Shown: piece by piece, positions 1 to 5,993 of the stretch | Numbering within the stretch: position 1 is the stretch's first letter | Layout: every line of letters begins with the position of its first letter | Source of the DNA: a virus | Taxonomy: Duplodnaviria > Heunggongvirae > Uroviricota > Caudoviricetes | Reading direction: 5' to 3' (one strand) | DNA: 5,993 nucleotides | IMG/VR virus record: IMGVR_UViG_2663762849_000004 | Location: 1-5,993 of that record | Program-made: the position numbers and the translations under genes | The notes under the pieces: generated by a model | Seen by the model: only the letters and a program-made list of their open reading frames with translations | Told to the model about the DNA's origin: nothing | Databases searched by the model: none

Positions 1-436
1 CACCGAGCCGGAATTTCATGAAATCCCGGGAGGTAAACGGGCATTTCAGTTCAAGGCCGTTGCCGTCACTGCATAAACCATCGGGAGAGCAGGCGGTGCG
101 CATACTTTCGTCGCGATAGATGATCGGGGATTCAGTAACATTCACGCCGGAAGTGAACTCAAAGAGGGCTCTGGCGTCGTTCTCGTACTGTTTTCCCCAG
201 GCCAGCGCTTTAGCGTTAACTTCCGGAGCCACACCGGTGCAAACCTCAGCCAGCAGGGTGTGGAAGTAGGACATTTTCATGTCAGGCCATTTCTTTCCTG
301 AGCGGGGTTTTGCTATCACGTTGTGAACTTCTGAAGCGGTGATGACGCCGAGCCGTAATTTGTGCCACGCATCATCCCCCTGTTCGACAGCTCTCACGTC
401 GATCCCTGTACGTTGCAGGATAATGTCCGGTGTCAT
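1..436 (-). CDS. exo: Lambda-type 5'-3' exonuclease (Red-alpha), N-terminal 145 codons; gene continues past the left edge
   Basis: Translating the minus strand from ATG at 436..434 gives [50 protein letters not shown]..., which I recognise as the N-terminus of phage lambda Exo. The frame is open to the window edge. The start overlaps the bet stop as ATGA (433..436), as in lambda. Confidence 0.9.
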
Positions 437-1218
437 GCTGCTACCTTCTGCTCTGTGACTTTCTGTTTCAGGAATCCAAGAACCTTCACAGCTTCAGCCT
501 GTGTTAGTTCTGAAGATGTGTAAATGTTGCGGCGAAAAATCTGGGAACAGAGCGGCAACAGGTCGTCATCCCACGTTTTTTCCATGGAAGTAAGAAGGGC
601 GTTAATTTCCGACATGGTTTCTTCGTTAACCGGGGTGATGTCGCGTTCCGGCTGACGTTCTGTAGTATATGCAGTATTTTCGACAATACGCTCGGCTTCA
701 TCCTTGTCATAGATGCCAGCAAATCCGAAGGCCAGGCGAGCACACTGAATCATGGCTTTGTGCCGTAACATCCGTTTGGGATGCGACTGCCACGGTCCGG
801 TGATTTCTCTGCCTTCGCGGGTTTTGAATGGTGTGCGGCGACATTCATCCATCCACTCGGTAACGCAGATCGGGTGATTGCGATCTTTGCGGTAAATCCG
901 GCATGTACAGGACTCATTGTCCTGCTCAAAGTCCATGCCATCAAACTGCTGGTTTTCATTGATAATGCGGGACCAGCCATCAACGCCAACCACCGGAACG
1001 ATGCCGTTCTGCTTGTCAGGGAAGGCGTAAATTTCTTTCGTCCAGGGATTAAGGCCGTACTGGTTGGCGACGATCAACAATGCGATAAATTGCGCATCGC
1101 TGGCATCACCTTTAAATGCCGTCTGGCGAAGAGTGGTGATTAGTTCCTGTGGGTCGACAGAATCCATGCCGACACGTTCAGCCAGCTTCCCTGCCAGCGT
1201 TGCGAGTGCTGTACTCAT
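433..1218 (-). CDS. bet: Red-beta single-strand annealing protein (Bet), 261 aa
   Basis: The 261-aa translation ([44 protein letters not shown]...) matches lambda Bet over its whole length, with a few substitutions near the C-terminus. ATG start at 1218..1216; TGA stop at 435..433, overlapping the exo start. Confidence 0.95.
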
Positions 1219-1223
1219 CCGTT

Positions 1224-1520
1224 TTATACCTCTGAATCAATATTAATTTGGTGACGGGCGATGGTTTCAGCCATGTAGCGGATGTGTTCTGCCATGCGTT
1301 CCTGAAAATCGACATCGTCATCAAATGCACGGGAAATAGCTTTTTTGCTGGCCCCGTGACGTTGCAGATTATCGATGCATAGCGATTCAAACAGGTGTTG
1401 GGGCAGACCTTTTTCCAGGTCGTCTGCCAGCTCAGCTTCAGTTTCTTCACGGGCAATTTGCTGGTAGTGTCGTGCCCATGACTGCTCTTCAATGCGATCG
1501 GGGATAAGCCAGGCATTCAT
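1224..1520 (-). CDS. gam: Gam, host RecBCD nuclease inhibitor, short isoform only (98 aa)
   Basis: The translation [26 protein letters not shown]...[20 protein letters not shown] is clearly related to the lambda GamS region but diverged more than Bet or Exo. ATG at 1520..1518. An in-frame TAA two codons upstream excludes a long Gam isoform. TAA stop at 1226..1224, 5 nt from the bet start. Confidence 0.9.
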
Positions 1521-3589
1521 GATTTATCACCTCCGAAATTTTCAAGCCTGTTGGCAATCATGATGGCGATATCAGGGATTGCTGGCGCTGTGGCTATACA
1601 TGCGGGGTTGGCGCACAAACCATAGACGGCGGCAATCACGAGCTGTCTTTTCCAGTCGAGAGTTACTGGCTCAGAATTGGCGTCATCGCCGGACGTATCA
1701 CTGCCTGGCTCGTTCTGAACAACGGTTTCGCCCTCCTGAGCGGCATCAACAGAGTTTTCCTGAATGATCTTCTCCTCAGTTTGTGCTGAGTCTTCTCCAT
1801 CAGCGGCGTCATTTTCTCCAAAAGTTTCTGTGTAAGTGCTATCGCCCATTACCGCACTACAGTCAGGGCAGTTACCCCCGCCAGTCTGACCACAGACGCG
1901 GCAGTTTTTTTCCAGCTCCGGTTGCGCTACTGGCCCTGGCTGTTGCTCTTCTGGCCCGTTTTGTTGCGTATCCGGGCTGTTTTGTCCCGCTTCTGGGGCA
2001 ATTTGTTCCACTTTGGACTGATTCTGGTCCTCAGTGTCGCGAGTCTGGATCCCCTTCACCCACTTCGGATCAGCAGGGTTACTGATGCCTTCAACGAATT
2101 CTCCACGCGAGGCAGCCAGTAATTTGTCGGCATCGACTGGATTTTTTGGGGGGATGTTTTCCCTGGCTTTATTGAGTTCCTCCCTCAGTTCCTGGTATTT
2201 CGTTTCTACAGATGAGACATTTTCCAGTGATTGCGTGTCCTCATTATGTTTAACTGGAATTTCTTCCACTGATTCAGGCGCTGCCTGTTCATTAGCCATT
2301 GTGTCCGATGCTTGTTGCTTTTCTTCATCGCCATGTTTTCCTTCTGCTGTTCCGCGCTGCGGCATCGGTGCTGATGAGCGACCGCAGGCAATTTCCACGA
2401 TTTCCGGATCCGGGTTAGCGTGATCGGTTTCGGTCAACACTTTGTTGAGATATTCAGTCACGCGTGCCGGGATGGCCTCAATGCCGATTGGTGCTTCTTT
2501 CACGGAAGCCACCACAATGGCGCGGGAATAATCCAGCCCACCGGGCATGGCGATAAATTTGTCGCGAAAAACAGAAAAGGGCGGCTTATTCTCTGACACG
2601 ATTTCTTCAACGCGTTTTGCGTGTGCTGGGTGCAGGTTATAAATATCCACATCCATTGAACGGGCCAGAACGCCGGTGGCTACATCTCGTGCGAGTGATG
2701 TCTTATCATGTTTGAATCCTTCACCACGATCGGTAATATTTCCGCCGCCAGCGTTAGCACCGGAAGGCGTACGGGTAATGCCTGAAACATAATTTCCGTT
2801 CTGCCATTCTTTTGTCAGCAGGCCCTGATCAAGGTAGTCAGTTTTCATCCAGGTGGAAATGAACTTGTCGAATTCAGCCGGGCTGATGCGATGATTTGCA
2901 GAGTGGGGGAATGCTTTCCCTACAGATTCAGCCAGGCGACTAAGGTGATAGTTCGTCAGTTTATCCAGTTCATGATGCGCGGCGCGCACAGCAGTAAGCA
3001 GGCTCTGAAGGTAACTGTCCTCTGTGTCCATCTCCATACGGATCACGTTATTGCGTTGTTCTGGTGTGGCATGATGCCGGTATTTTCCATCTTCATCTTT
3101 GCTGAATAAGAAGAGGTGAAGGAAGCGATGAGTAAGGCTCAGAGTGGCGACGGGAATTTCACACTCAGAACAGTCATCGTCGCTGTCCGGGGATTCGCTT
3201 TTCTCCACATCATCCGGAATAGTTCCGTCCAGGTTATCGTTGTCATCGCCAGCAGTTGTGGCATCTTCACCGTTGATGTTGTCATCGAAGGGGATAGCCA
3301 TCATGGTGATGCCATCGTTACCGCCTTTTTCATAGCGGTTGCAGAATTCAGTATCAAACACGCCTTCCGGTGGAAGGTCATTCACAACGGGTAAATGGAC
3401 GCGGATGGGTTTTTTAAAATCCTCTTCGTCAAATCCGGCATCGTCCATTGCAGCAACACCGCGTGATATTGCAACCGATAATTTTTTTGCTGTGCGCCAG
3501 TAAAAACCACCTTTAATCCCAAGGCGTTTTCTGACTTTGTCATTTTTGGCTTCGTAATATAGTGCAATTTCTTCTTTATCAGCGTTCAT
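1517..3589 (-). CDS. Hypothetical 690-aa protein of unknown function: basic N-terminal region, acidic tract, central globular region, Q/E/P-rich low-complexity segment, CxxC-x7-CxxC motif, hydrophobic C-terminal tail
   Basis: A 2073-nt uninterrupted ORF on the same strand as the Red genes. ATG at 3589..3587 is preceded by GAGG 7 nt upstream. The TGA stop (1519..1517) overlaps the gam ATG as ATGA, implying co-transcription and translational coupling. Plus-strand ORFs inside this span are short antisense shadows. I recognise no family. Confidence 0.8.
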
Positions 3590-3681
3590 TGATAAACCTC
3601 ATAACCATTTTAAGGATGAACAAATTCCTGCCATTGCTGGCATTTTTAATCCGTTGGTATGGCGTTAATATGGCTGGCGGG

Positions 3682-3870
3682 TTATCCAGCCGGTGTTTCG
3701 TTATTCAGGTACAGCGATACTTTTTTTAACGGGAGGCATTCACCGGGGATTTTTTGTTCGTCCCTTACCTGAATGCAGGATGACTTACTGTCATAAATTC
3801 CGGTAATCACATTCTGCGGCTCACCCGTTATAAGAAAAACGGTCATTATCAGTGCAAACGCTGAAGTCAC
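3682..3870 (-). CDS. Hypothetical 62-aa protein with a hydrophobic N-terminal segment (MTSAFALIMTVFLITG...); GTG start
   Basis: ORF with GTG at 3870..3868 preceded by GGAGAA at about -8. The start overlaps the stop of the upstream ORF as GTGA (3867..3870). An alternative internal ATG at 3846 has no RBS. The short length keeps this call uncertain. Confidence 0.45.
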   Translation of the reverse strand: MTSAFALIMTVFLITGEPQNVITGIYDSKSSCIQVRDEQKIPGECLPLKKVSLYLNNETPAG

Positions 3871-4055
3871 TGCTGTTCTCCGATAATACCAAGTTCAAGA
3901 AGGGCAATTCTGGAAAGTATGGAATTATCATTGAGAAGATAAGGTTCATATTTTCTCATCTTAATGGCATCTTCAGTAAACTCCCGGTTACTGAGCAGAA
4001 CTCCAATATCAAAACAACCTTCAGACGTATTAACGTTTGGTAATAACGTTTCCAT
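3867..4055 (-). CDS. Hypothetical 62-aa protein (METLLPNVNTSEGCFDIGVLLSNREFTEDAIKMRKYEPYLLNDNSILSRIALLELGIIGEQQ)
   Basis: ATG at 4055..4053 with GAGGA 7 nt upstream. The TGA stop at 3869..3867 overlaps the next start. The six-frame track extends this frame to an ATG at 4202 (111 aa), but that extension has a poor RBS, runs through the inverted-repeat segment and has Arg/Cys/Gly/Pro-rich non-protein-like composition. Confidence 0.5.
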   Translation of the reverse strand: METLLPNVNTSEGCFDIGVLLSNREFTEDAIKMRKYEPYLLNDNSILSRIALLELGIIGEQQ

Positions 4056-4072
4056 TATCGCGTCCTCAACAA

Positions 4073-4222
4073 TGAATTTTGTGATGCAGTGCCTGGTGCC
4101 TCCAGGTGACGTTAACCAGTTAACAACTAACGCCGGGTCAGGGGACGATGACTTTCCGTGACATCCTGTCGGTTTAACTGTTCCGCGTGCGCATAGCCGC
4201 ATTCACCGCATCACAAAATTCA
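4073..4222. repeat. Pair of inverted repeats (15 bp perfect, 18/19 when extended) bounding a ~112-bp internal segment
   Basis: TGAATTTTGTGATGC at 4073..4087 is the exact reverse complement of GCATCACAAAATTCA at 4208..4222. Extended to 4073..4091 and 4204..4222 the arms match at 18 of 19 positions. The interior holds two GTTAAC sites 8 bp apart (4111..4116, 4119..4124) and a small CCTGG/CCAGG hairpin (4092..4106). Confidence 0.6.
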
Positions 4223-4267
4223 CTTTAAAAAGGGCGGACATCAGCAATCGGCAAACCGATGTCCGCC
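4221..4267 (-). terminator. Candidate rho-independent terminator for minus-strand transcripts
   Basis: A perfect 10-bp GC-rich stem (4233..4242 GGCGGACATC pairs with 4258..4267 GATGTCCGCC) with a 15-nt loop. On the minus strand the stem is followed directly by C-UUUUU-AAAGUGAAUUUUGUG (complement of 4232..4212). The plus-strand side has no U-tract. The loop is longer than typical. Confidence 0.45.
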
Positions 4268-4506
4268 AAGGGCTACACACAGCAATGTTGTTATTCACAA
4301 CCGGAAGCGCACGGTCGAAGAAATCTAACGACAAGCCTTCAATGGGAAAGAGTCTTCGCCGTGCACTTTCGTGTTGTACCCTGGCTTTCAGGGTAATGTC
4401 TGTTCAGTAAACTGAGAGTGCCGGAACTTACCCGTGTCCGGCGCACGATCTCCACCTCACCCGTGGAGAACTCCTCAACTACAAACCCCGTAAGGAGAGT
4501 GAGTTT

Positions 4507-4716
4507 ATGACACAAGAAGAAAAAGTGATGTTTCTGATGCGGCTGGCTGTCGATACCTACAACACACAATTCAGGGAGAAAGATATACCTCAAAAGGCAG
4601 TTCCTGCCGCGGTAGATAAGGGCGGTGCTATTGCCGTATTTTACGATGCATTTGAATCATTTTTTAATGAAAAACTCGACGCTGTTAGCGGCTTCGGAAC
4701 ATCGAGTAATAAATAA
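4507..4716 (+). CDS. Hypothetical 69-aa protein on the opposite strand to the rest of the operon
   Basis: ATG at 4507 is preceded by a strong RBS, TAAGGAGAG (4491..4499), 7 nt upstream. The ORF runs to TAA at 4714..4716. It converges on, and overlaps by 32 bp, the 3' end of the minus-strand gene 4685..5044. The competing minus-strand ORF 4339..4593 has junk-like composition. Confidence 0.45.
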   Translation: MTQEEKVMFLMRLAVDTYNTQFREKDIPQKAVPAAVDKGGAIAVFYDAFESFFNEKLDAVSGFGTSSNK

Positions 4717-5044
4717 CGTTCATTACGGTTCTTAAACAACAATCAGTGGGCTTGATGTTGTTCTTTTCAAGCTCACTTGCCATCACTTCCATTATTCTTG
4801 CACTTACACGAATTATTTGGTGGCTGTAAGCGATGCAACTGTCGCTGATATTGCTGTTTATTTCTATTACTTCATTTTCACCATTAGCATCAACTTCGGA
4901 TGCGCTGTTTTCATTATCCTGTTTCAGTGCTTTTTCTGCCATCTGGATGCGTGTCAGCGTTGCGGAATTTGGGCTAAGTCGATAAACCTGTCTGGCATCT
5001 TCCAGAAGCAGGGCGATAATGTGCTTCAGTTCTGTTTCGTTCAT
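4685..5044 (-). CDS. Hypothetical 119-aa protein (MNETELKHIIALLLEDARQVYRLSPNSATLTRIQMAEKALKQ...)
   Basis: ATG at 5044..5042 with GGAG 6 nt upstream. The track's 126-aa version starts at a TTG at 5065 that lies inside the RBS. No family recognised. Confidence 0.6.
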   Translation of the reverse strand: MNETELKHIIALLLEDARQVYRLSPNSATLTRIQMAEKALKQDNENSASEVDANGENEVIEINSNISDSCIAYSHQIIRVSARIMEVMASELEKNNIKPTDCCLRTVMNVIYYSMFRSR

Positions 5045-5075
5045 AGTTAACTCCGGTAGTTGCAATTTATTAATA

Positions 5076-5381
5076 TCAGGCGGTCAGCTCTTTAAGCTTC
5101 TGAACTGCTTTATTCATTTCATCCATACAGTCGATGAATTCGTCCAGTTTAAGCTGCATTTTTCCGGCGGCCTGAAGAATTTCAAGTTTTAAGGGCGCAA
5201 GTTTTTTGTTGAATGCATCATCTTCCTGGCGTTTTTTCTCCGCAATTTCGGCGGCTTTCAGCAATTCTTCAGCCTGTTTTCTGAGTATTTCTGGTGAAGG
5301 TGAAACTGCTTTGAGGTTATTCATTTCAGGTTCCTGTTGTTGCAGAATTAATTTGTTGCATTCTCTGCGTGAGCGTTTCAT
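5076..5381 (-). CDS. Hypothetical 101-aa protein, Lys/Glu/Ala/Leu-rich, predicted coiled coil
   Basis: ATG at 5381..5379 overlaps the upstream gene's TGA as ATGA (5378..5381). An alternative internal ATG at 5324 with AGGAA 6 nt upstream would give 82 aa. The sequence ...EILRKQAEELLKAAEIAEKKRQEDDAFNKKLAPLKLEILQAAGKMQLKLDEF... has a heptad-like charge pattern. Confidence 0.6.
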   Translation of the reverse strand: MKRSRRECNKLILQQQEPEMNNLKAVSPSPEILRKQAEELLKAAEIAEKKRQEDDAFNKKLAPLKLEILQAAGKMQLKLDEFIDCMDEMNKAVQKLKELTA

Positions 5382-5788
5382 TGCAGATTCGCACTTCTTG
5401 CAATAAATGGCTCTCCCGTCACGCTTGCTGGCATCTGAATAAAAATCATTGACTGATTTTGTCTGCCCGCATCTGGTACATAATTTTGATTGAAGGTCCT
5501 TAATGATTGTGACGTTTCCTTCCCGCTTGGGATATCCATATTTTTGTGGCGTAAAAAGGTTACTCCGTTACCAGAACCTTCTTTTCTGACCTTAAATACA
5601 ATGATGCTTTCCCGTTTATCGATAAAATCGATGAGCTGGTTTCTCTCCTTTCCTGACAGTTCGGCAAATGTCTTAACTTTTTTAGTAACCTCAGTAAGGC
5701 GAACGCCGTCAGGCATTTTTTCAACGAAGTTTTTAATCTCTGCAAGCGGACGCCATAATTTTTGCGGCAAAACTGAAGGCGTGGTCAT
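5378..5788 (-). CDS. Hypothetical 136-aa protein (MTTPSVLPQKLWRPLAEIKNFVEKMPDGVRLTEVTKKV...)
   Basis: ATG at 5788..5786 with GAGGTGA 5 nt upstream; the track's first codon is a TTG at 5791. Three nt separate it from the stop of the upstream partial ORF. No family recognised. Confidence 0.65.
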   Translation of the reverse strand: MTTPSVLPQKLWRPLAEIKNFVEKMPDGVRLTEVTKKVKTFAELSGKERNQLIDFIDKRESIIVFKVRKEGSGNGVTFLRHKNMDIPSGKETSQSLRTFNQNYVPDAGRQNQSMIFIQMPASVTGEPFIARSANLQ

Positions 5789-5791
5789 CAA

Positions 5792-5993
5792 TCACCTCGC
5801 CGTCAGTTGTTTTGATTTCCGGTAGCCTGCCGCGTAAATGGCTACGTTTGGAAGACATACACCAGTTTCTGGTTGCTTATGTCCAAACTCATTCGCGTAC
5901 ACAATGGCTGCTCGCTCCAGATTGCGTCTGTATTCTTTCTGTTGCCAGATCACGTCCTGTGCCATGAACTTAATTGGCTTAGCGTCTTCTATG
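5792..5993 (-). CDS. 3' end of a minus-strand ORF entering from the right edge (...MAQDVIWQQKEYRRNLERAAIVYANEFGHKQPETGVCLPNVAIYAAGYRKSKQLTAR)
   Basis: This frame is open from the window edge to TGA at 5794..5792, which sits inside the RBS of the next gene. An internal ATG at 5965 lacks a convincing RBS, so the gene probably starts outside the window. Confidence 0.5.
   Translation of the reverse strand, partial: IEDAKPIKFMAQDVIWQQKEYRRNLERAAIVYANEFGHKQPETGVCLPNVAIYAAGYRKSKQLTAR

Follow-up and report, generated by a model that had tools for sequence, protein, structure and literature searches.

The question raised by this locus is what a large gene does immediately upstream of gam in a lambdoid phage. 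The DNA analysed (hereafter the window, the whole stretch of 5,993 nucleotides, positions 1 to 5,993 of IMG/VR virus record IMGVR_UViG_2663762849_000004) contains an open reading frame (ORF) of 690 codons at 1517-3589, minus strand, with an ATG start and its stop codon at 1517-1519. A preliminary description, made from the sequence alone, had called this ORF unassignable. We found instead that it almost certainly corresponds, as a separate paralogous gene, to the first ~590 residues of RecE (exonuclease VIII), with the PDDEXK nuclease exchanged for a helical hairpin of ~45 residues. The part shared with RecE is called the N-region below, and the hairpin the tail.

Three profile and sequence comparisons carry this assignment. 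Among PHROGs, the ORF matches phrog_607 ('exonuclease VIII') with E=7e-256, over profile positions 1-618 of 883 only. With the NCBIfam ExoVIII equivalog model (NF007259, cutoff 1269 bits, Rac RecE scoring 1830), it aligns to positions 1-598 of 877 and scores 746 bits, below the cutoff. By BLASTP, residues 58-635 align with residues 50-578 of Rac RecE (E. coli K-12 b1350, 866 aa) at 52% identity (E=3e-177). Identity to Rac RecE reaches 83-93% over residues 271-420 and is only ~7-40% over the N-terminal 240 residues, and the Pfam domain Exonuc_VIII (PF06630) is matched at residues 56-197 with E=3.5e-10. The PDDEXK nuclease domain PF12684, present at 615-850 in Rac RecE (E=4e-28), was not found in the ORF by Pfam, a sequence search of the PDB matched no solved structure, not even the crystallised RecE nuclease, and the final ~55 residues do not align to RecE. 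The DNA itself is Rac-like at 1842-2847, matches neither Rac nor lambda at 1517-1841, and is lambda-like from 1499 down. As the preliminary description had reported, no catalytic motif was detected: searches of Pfam, NCBIfam, PHROGs and PADLOC gave no Walker A, HExxH, reverse-transcriptase or Fic family. Conserved positions in the ORF family are mostly hydrophobic, with no catalytic-type cluster. Because the catalytic PDDEXK domain is absent, the protein is not expected to be an exonuclease.

The ORF shares with Rac RecE the PF06630 domain, the helical core, the RGEFVxGISDPxDPKW and CxxC-x7-CxxC motifs, and an equivalent place in the lambdoid early-left operon, with a Kil/DicB-type gene upstream. 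It differs by the loss of the nuclease (RecE 615-850), in whose place stands a 45-aa helical tail, and by its downstream partners, which are Gam, Bet and lambda Exo, where the Rac gene has RecT. On catalytic domain, curated score and RecT partner, the ORF therefore falls outside RecE proper. GenBank and RefSeq nevertheless annotate it as a RecE-type exonuclease, and nearly all its relatives in the protein database are named 'exodeoxyribonuclease VIII' or 'RecE family exodeoxyribonuclease', the second being the PGAP name. Judged by sequence, the latter label is a misnomer for this class. In genomics papers on Stx phages, the gene is listed merely under its database name.

RecE relatives without a nuclease domain, found in lambdoid Rec modules, have been named 'RecE-2' in a 2025 survey of such modules, where their role is given as unknown and not studied (PMC12315714, Genome Res 2025). 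The ORF fits every element of that description, being a Rac/Gifsy-1 RecE relative, predicted by structure modelling to have no nuclease domain, and located in a lambdoid early-left/Rec module. It can be placed in the 'RecE-2' class as a fit to the description. The article itself offers no sequence features, tail motif, selection or context analysis (PMC12315714). The term unassignable can thus be dropped, as the ORF is a clear homolog of the RecE N-region and its class already had a name. RecE is a well-characterised protein, but the match is confined to a portion of it that has no assigned function (PMC11611040).

An AlphaFold2 model of the ORF, built from a 96-sequence alignment of 50%-identity representatives, has a mean predicted local distance difference test (pLDDT) of 74, with 357 residues at 90 or above and two folded regions at ~95. 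The ratio of nonsynonymous to synonymous divergence (dN/dS) was obtained from a codon-based comparison of the ORF with three phage relatives. The segments of the protein are the following.

3278-3589, minus strand: residues 1-104, small alpha/beta N-terminal domain, part of PF06630 (pLDDT ~95)
3170-3277, minus strand: residues 105-140, acidic disordered linker
2345-3169, minus strand: residues 141-415, mainly helical conserved core (pLDDT ~95)
2219-2344, minus strand: residues 416-457, acidic disordered linker under relaxed selection (dN/dS ~0.95 over residues 413-460)
2051-2218, minus strand: residues 458-513, confident helix pair and conserved motif (dN/dS 0.11)
1856-1906, minus strand: residues 562-578, CxxC-x7-CxxC zinc-ribbon-like motif (C563, C566, C574, C577)
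1664-1855, minus strand: residues 579-642, fast-evolving acidic linker (dN/dS ~0.6), whose DNA matches neither Rac nor lambda
1520-1663, minus strand: residues 643-690, conserved C-terminal helical hairpin, the tail, in place of the RecE nuclease (dN/dS 0.12)

The core is near-identical to that of Rac RecE over residues ~270-415, and is common to the nuclease-bearing, tail-bearing and other members of the family. The modelled helix pair covers residues 458-494, next to the conserved motif RGEFVxGISxPxDPKW, and the motif of residues 458-513 recurs in distant members amid otherwise variable sequence. The CxxC-x7-CxxC motif is found also in Rac RecE and in P0116, a nuclease-bearing RecE of 1049 aa, and is deleted in frame in a relative, P0118. 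The protein is strongly acidic (125 D/E for 69 K/R, a net charge of about -56), and residues 101-150 alone contain 18 D/E and a single K/R. The tail hairpin is modelled at residues 646-683 with a pLDDT of 60-73. A structural search with the model gave no significant neighbour in PDB or BFVD, and no nuclease or enzyme fold.

The gene is under selection. Its dN/dS is ~0.2 overall, 0.11-0.17 in the folding segments and 0.12 in the tail; values of 0.6-0.95 are confined to the two acidic linkers. In the protein database, more than 100 clusters of 680-700 aa are 77-100% identical to the ORF, all with an intact frame. The junction between tail and gam is present as a single chromosomal copy in ~80 of 5,426 complete E. 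coli genomes, among them those of strains from the O104:H4 outbreak. Isolated phages carrying the gene are PhiR5_2, phiSTEC1589-Stx1c and Shigella phages 75/02 Stx and POCJ13, and PhiR5_2, 75/02 Stx and POCJ13 are among the carriers that are plaque-forming or inducible. Frame disruption shortens the tail ORF in 5 of the ~62 full-length viral matches (L053, L055, L071, L072, L079), which suggests that some prophage copies are decaying. We conclude from these comparisons that the gene is an intact functional unit under purifying selection.

The family is small. An exhaustive search of 1.84 billion representatives yielded 204 relatives of the ORF only. Among 82 long representatives, 20 have a RecE-type nuclease and ~25 a tail, the remainder ending in other C-terminal extensions. 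In the ~25 tailed representatives (50%-identity clusters), which come from several genera and have cores only 30-45% identical, the tail motif lies 3-13 residues from the C-terminus, with the consensus LTYxQQLTIAALQGLCANPA...DDIPxMAxxLA. The ORF carries it at residues 645-683, near the C-terminus, as QQLTIAALQGLCANPA...DDIPxMAxxLA, and the near-invariant positions are, in ORF numbering, Q649, L650, A653, A654, G657, C659, A660, N661, P662 and A675. The tail has no relative in Pfam or PDB, and a tail profile run against 5.8 billion proteins found only short fragments of the same family and no other type of protein. There is thus no evidence of the tail as a portable module.

How the tail came to replace the nuclease is suggested by P0116, the nuclease-bearing RecE. 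It is 97-100% identical to the ORF over residues ~120-510, and diverges from it after 'KGIQTRD' (~518), which indicates that one N-region has lately come to be combined with either of two C-terminal modules, by a swap of nuclease and tail whose breakpoint falls in a disordered segment. Two other relatives have lost internal parts: P0118 (663 aa) lacks the zinc-ribbon segment in frame, and P0129 (447 aa) has lost most of the core and kept the tail. Since P0118 does without it in frame, the zinc ribbon may be dispensable. Synonymous divergence (dS) along the gene alternates between blocks of zero and blocks of high values, and the gene is therefore an intragenic mosaic. Over window 3290-3589 (codons 1-100), dS to the otherwise closest relatives is ~0.65, and it is ~0 over most of the remaining gene in PhiR5_2, which points to recent intragenic recombination inside the N-terminal domain.

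The tails also relate the ORF to phrog_26058, an uncharacterised phage protein family (633 profile positions): 23 of 23 match its C-terminal end, at profile positions ~585-620, and core residues 175-425 of the ORF match the same profile with E=2.8e-29. The ORF differs from it in having an N-terminal half and central linkers of the kind seen in phrog_607 (RecE). Most members of phrog_26058 have another middle domain of ~100 aa where the ORF has the zinc ribbon, and most stand alone before xis-int. In one distant tail-class protein (an 824-aa ORF, L097:5001-7040), a weak partial match to the Pfam family PAPS_reduct (E=5e-6) was seen mid-protein; it derives from translated match coordinates and not from a called ORF, and may be an inserted domain or an artefact.

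The genes surrounding the ORF in the window are listed here.

1-436, minus strand: 5' part of a lambda-type exo (YqaJ family), cut by the window edge, with an ATGA overlap with the bet stop
433-1218, minus strand: bet (Red-beta annealase), RecT family (phrog_252, E=2e-125)
1224-1520, minus strand: gam (98-aa GamS form; Pfam Gam, E=5e-65), its start overlapping the stop of the 690-aa ORF
3682-3870, minus strand: DUF1482 small gene, directly upstream of the 690-aa ORF
3867-4202, minus strand: DicB-domain ORF (cell-division inhibitor, Kil analogue; E=2.5e-37)

The order is N ... DicB - DUF1482 - ORF - gam - bet - exo, and in relatives it runs on to int; the antiterminator gene N lies further right than the DicB gene, and only part of it falls inside the window. 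Identity to the lambda exo-bet-gam DNA is 92% over window 1-1499. The 690-aa ORF is a real gene, as first described: a Shine-Dalgarno sequence GAGG lies 7 nt 5' of its ATG, and an open frame of 690 codons would be expected by chance with p ~(61/64)^690, roughly 1e-14. Its 3' end reads ...GGT GAT AAA TCA TGA and gam begins ATG AAT GCC, so that stop and start overlap in ATGA; the gam Shine-Dalgarno GGAGGTGA lies within the final codons of the ORF, which encode the tail. A promoter scan upstream of the ORF gave no promoter-like signal above chance, in line with the early-left operon membership proposed in the preliminary description. We are nearly certain, for this point and for the identity with the RecE N-region taken jointly, that the ORF belongs to the early-left operon of lambdoid phages, including Stx-converting ones, and that its translation is coupled to that of gam.

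The lambda genes immediately upstream of gam are kil and then cIII, as the preliminary description had it in placing the ORF in their slot. Position, immediately upstream of gam in the pL operon, is all that the ORF shares with lambda Kil and CIII: there is no homology, the size differs 13-fold, and this phage keeps its DicB-domain Kil analogue. Since that analogue is still present upstream, the ORF is an additional gene adjoining gam and not a replacement of kil. The idea that its position is variable holds, as it sits in a mosaic, exchangeable slot.

The N-region is found in three types of genomic context. In all 66 relatives at >=50% identity (at least 50%), the tail form is directly followed by gam, and most continue with Bet-Exo. 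A variant of this arrangement, seen at six loci (L064, L068, L071, L072, L076, L086), has an AAA_24 (Sak4-like) ATPase in place of Bet-Exo. At L064:5167-6264, for example, the ATPase has 365 aa and stands after the tail gene and gam, before RcbA-Xis-Int; loci of this type are a Rec module pairing lambda Gam with a different type of recombinase. At L075:7092-8296, an IS3-family transposase pair (HTH_Tnp_1 and rve) comes right after gam, in the place of the recombinase genes. The second context, that of Rac and P0116, has the N-region fused to the nuclease, with RecT, Lar, RcbA, Xis and Int coming next. In the third, found in 22 of the 22 distant members, the tail form stands alone before Rrf2-like/RcbA, Xis and Int; these come from Buttiauxella, Citrobacter, Lelliottia, Cedecea and viral contigs. 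In stand-alone prophages (L007:7449-7814, L014:6139-6483), a small gene of the Rrf2 family (winged-helix) is directly downstream of the tail form, followed by an RcbA homolog, and this trio recurs.

What the protein does can be approached from these contexts and from RecE itself. We tentatively propose, with somewhat less than even confidence, that the ORF encodes an accessory or scaffold protein without catalytic activity, working within the phage apparatus for double-stranded DNA ends. This is suggested because the N-region is fused to the nuclease in RecE, because the gene always sits in a recombination or early-left module, and because full-length RecE has an enhanced capacity for linear-linear recombination, the nuclease domain alone sufficing for basic function (review, PMC11611040). 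In this picture, long linkers that are acidic and disordered would connect the two folded domains and carry short conserved motifs, namely RGEFVxGISxPxDPKW, the zinc ribbon and the tail. The same module that is fused to a tetrameric nuclease in RecE would act here in trans, beside Gam-Bet-Exo, and self-association or docking, for which RecE has its nuclease tetramer, would fall to the tail hairpin. Docking of the tail specifically onto lambda Exo or Bet was ruled out, as the tail also occurs with a Sak4-like ATPase or with no recombinase. A membrane anchor, suggested by the hydrophobic tail variant of the window, was likewise discarded on the grounds that distant tails are amphipathic and charged. 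In the 2025 survey, P22 Abc1 and Arf are described as accessory, non-essential Rec-module proteins aiding recombination by an unknown mechanism (PMC12315714), and their likeness to the ORF would be a functional analogy drawn from the literature.

Several points weigh against an accessory or scaffold role. The RecE N-region is dispensable for basic RecE recombination (PMC11611040). None of the 22 distant tail-class loci has Gam, Bet, Exo, RecT or the RecE nuclease, from which it follows that no phage recombinase is needed in cis. The strong acidity of the ORF argues against direct DNA binding, and the proposed scaffold would have neither a structural analogy nor a known partner. Fu et al., in 2012, reportedly found that the N-region of RecE must be in cis.

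Two readings carry very little weight. That it encodes a functional exodeoxyribonuclease VIII, as PGAP and GenBank annotate it, is scarcely credible: the names in the databases and the N-terminal Pfam Exonuc_VIII match speak for it, and against it stand the absence of PF12684, family profiles that align only to the N-terminal ~600 positions, an NCBIfam score far under the cutoff, the lack of a PDB match to the RecE nuclease, and a predicted model with no nuclease fold. It is very improbable that the ORF is a recE remnant in decay or an artefactual fusion, cut short by recombination with a lambda Red module and read through into junk. The mosaic make-up of the gene (Rac-like at 1842-2847 only, lambda-like from 1499), the frame disruptions in 5 of the ~62 full-length viral matches and the in-frame deletions of P0118 and P0129 could be read in this way. 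A remnant would not be expected to keep a tail with a dN/dS of 0.12, conserved at the C-terminus of proteins whose cores are 30-45% identical across several genera, nor to persist as more than 100 intact clusters of 680-700 aa and in plaque-forming or inducible phages (PhiR5_2, 75/02 Stx, POCJ13). The preliminary description had mentioned a pseudogene or fusion artefact; a dN/dS of ~0.2 and a frame intact in most relatives speak for a maintained gene.

The main rival reading is that of an autonomous host-directed early protein, whose N-region would have an activity unrelated to the recombinase. It might, for instance, bind or inhibit a nuclease of the host, a DNA-binding protein or a defence system, perhaps with the acidic disordered segments as nucleic-acid mimics, and the nuclease fusion of RecE would be secondary; we consider this possible, if rather unlikely. 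It would account for the 22 tail-class loci with no recognisable recombinase or Gam, for the net charge of about -56 and the very acidic linkers, for the orphan fold, for the place of the gene in the early-left operon beside host-modulating genes of the Kil/DicB, Ral/Lar and Gam types, and for the modular exchange of its right-hand partners. However, the acidic linkers are the least constrained parts of the protein (dN/dS 0.6-0.95), the module is repeatedly joined to or adjoining recombination genes, and the sole experimental phenotype known for the N-region is recombination. PADLOC and fold searches gave no similarity to known defence or anti-defence families, the only, non-specific likeness to PADLOC proteins and to the DNA mimics Ocr, ArdA and Gam being the acidic net charge; the anti-defence, host-takeover or exclusion function first suggested for the ORF found no support. 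The literature on RecE as a retron trigger was set aside, as it concerns the nuclease activity that the ORF lacks. In a fuller form, to which we give a low but real chance, the N-region would be an autonomous early protein of orphan fold that modulates the defences or DNA-end enzymes of the host, in concert with Gam in one lineage and by itself in another; RecE would be its nuclease fusion, and the hairpin a new oligomerisation or docking module substituting for the nuclease tetramer. The strict pairing of gene and gam in one lineage suggests cooperation with Gam, and in E. coli and Shigella the ORF might modulate or extend the inhibition of RecBCD or SbcCD with Gam, and not act with the annealase and exonuclease. 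The 66 relatives out of 66 followed by gam, including the six with a Sak4-like ATPase for Bet-Exo, the overlap of stop and start, and the gam Shine-Dalgarno inside the tail codons agree with such a partnership, which remains improbable in our view: adjacency may come from linkage and a mosaic boundary common to both genes, the same tail occurs without Gam in the distant subfamily, nuclease-bearing RecE modules lack Gam, and lambda Gam is well known to work without such a protein.

The region upstream of the ORF presents features of its own. The DUF1482 gene also lies 5' of tail-class genes in Buttiauxella and Lelliottia prophages. The DicB-domain ORF has 111 aa, but because its domain is confined to residues 50-111 and relatives encode a DicB of 62 aa (L021:300-488), translation probably begins at an internal Met, for a product of ~62 aa. 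Close prophage relatives have KilR and a 128-aa hypothetical gene in its place, so that the block upstream of the 690-aa ORF is itself exchangeable. Just upstream of the DicB-domain ORF, window 4071-4312 shares 77% identity with Rac DNA lying upstream of kilR, where the kilS small RNA is encoded (L002 9250-9497), and may contain a KilS/DicF-like small RNA; an Rfam scan of the whole window gave no match at or above a family's gathering score. Further upstream, two ORFs on the minus strand, at 5378-5791 (137 aa) and 5076-5381 (101 aa), are the two halves of one early-left gene, phrog_2539, which is intact in relatives (237 aa, L015:1952-2665). The window copy is 98% identical, with a frameshift near 5541 from a 1-nt deletion in a poly-A run; an error in sequencing, a pseudogene or a site of slippage could each explain it.

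Beyond the single mention of the class found in the literature, this analysis adds a conserved tail, an orphan fold predicted with high confidence, a recent swap of nuclease for tail, and two regimes of genomic context, in which the gene is either invariably paired with gam or stands alone. Recombineering has two standard systems, and RecE/RecT is one of them. For decades the ~590-residue N-region of RecE had no known function, and reviews report for it an enhanced linear-linear recombination, the basis of direct cloning (PMC11611040). Hundreds of entries named 'RecE family exodeoxyribonuclease' have no nuclease domain, which amounts to a systematic annotation error, and the presence of the gene in Stx-converting phages and in the O104:H4 outbreak lineage gives it medical relevance. 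Natural phages that carry the N-region as a separate, selected gene make the role of this module without its nuclease directly testable, whether beside Gam-Bet-Exo, beside a Sak4-like ATPase, or alone.

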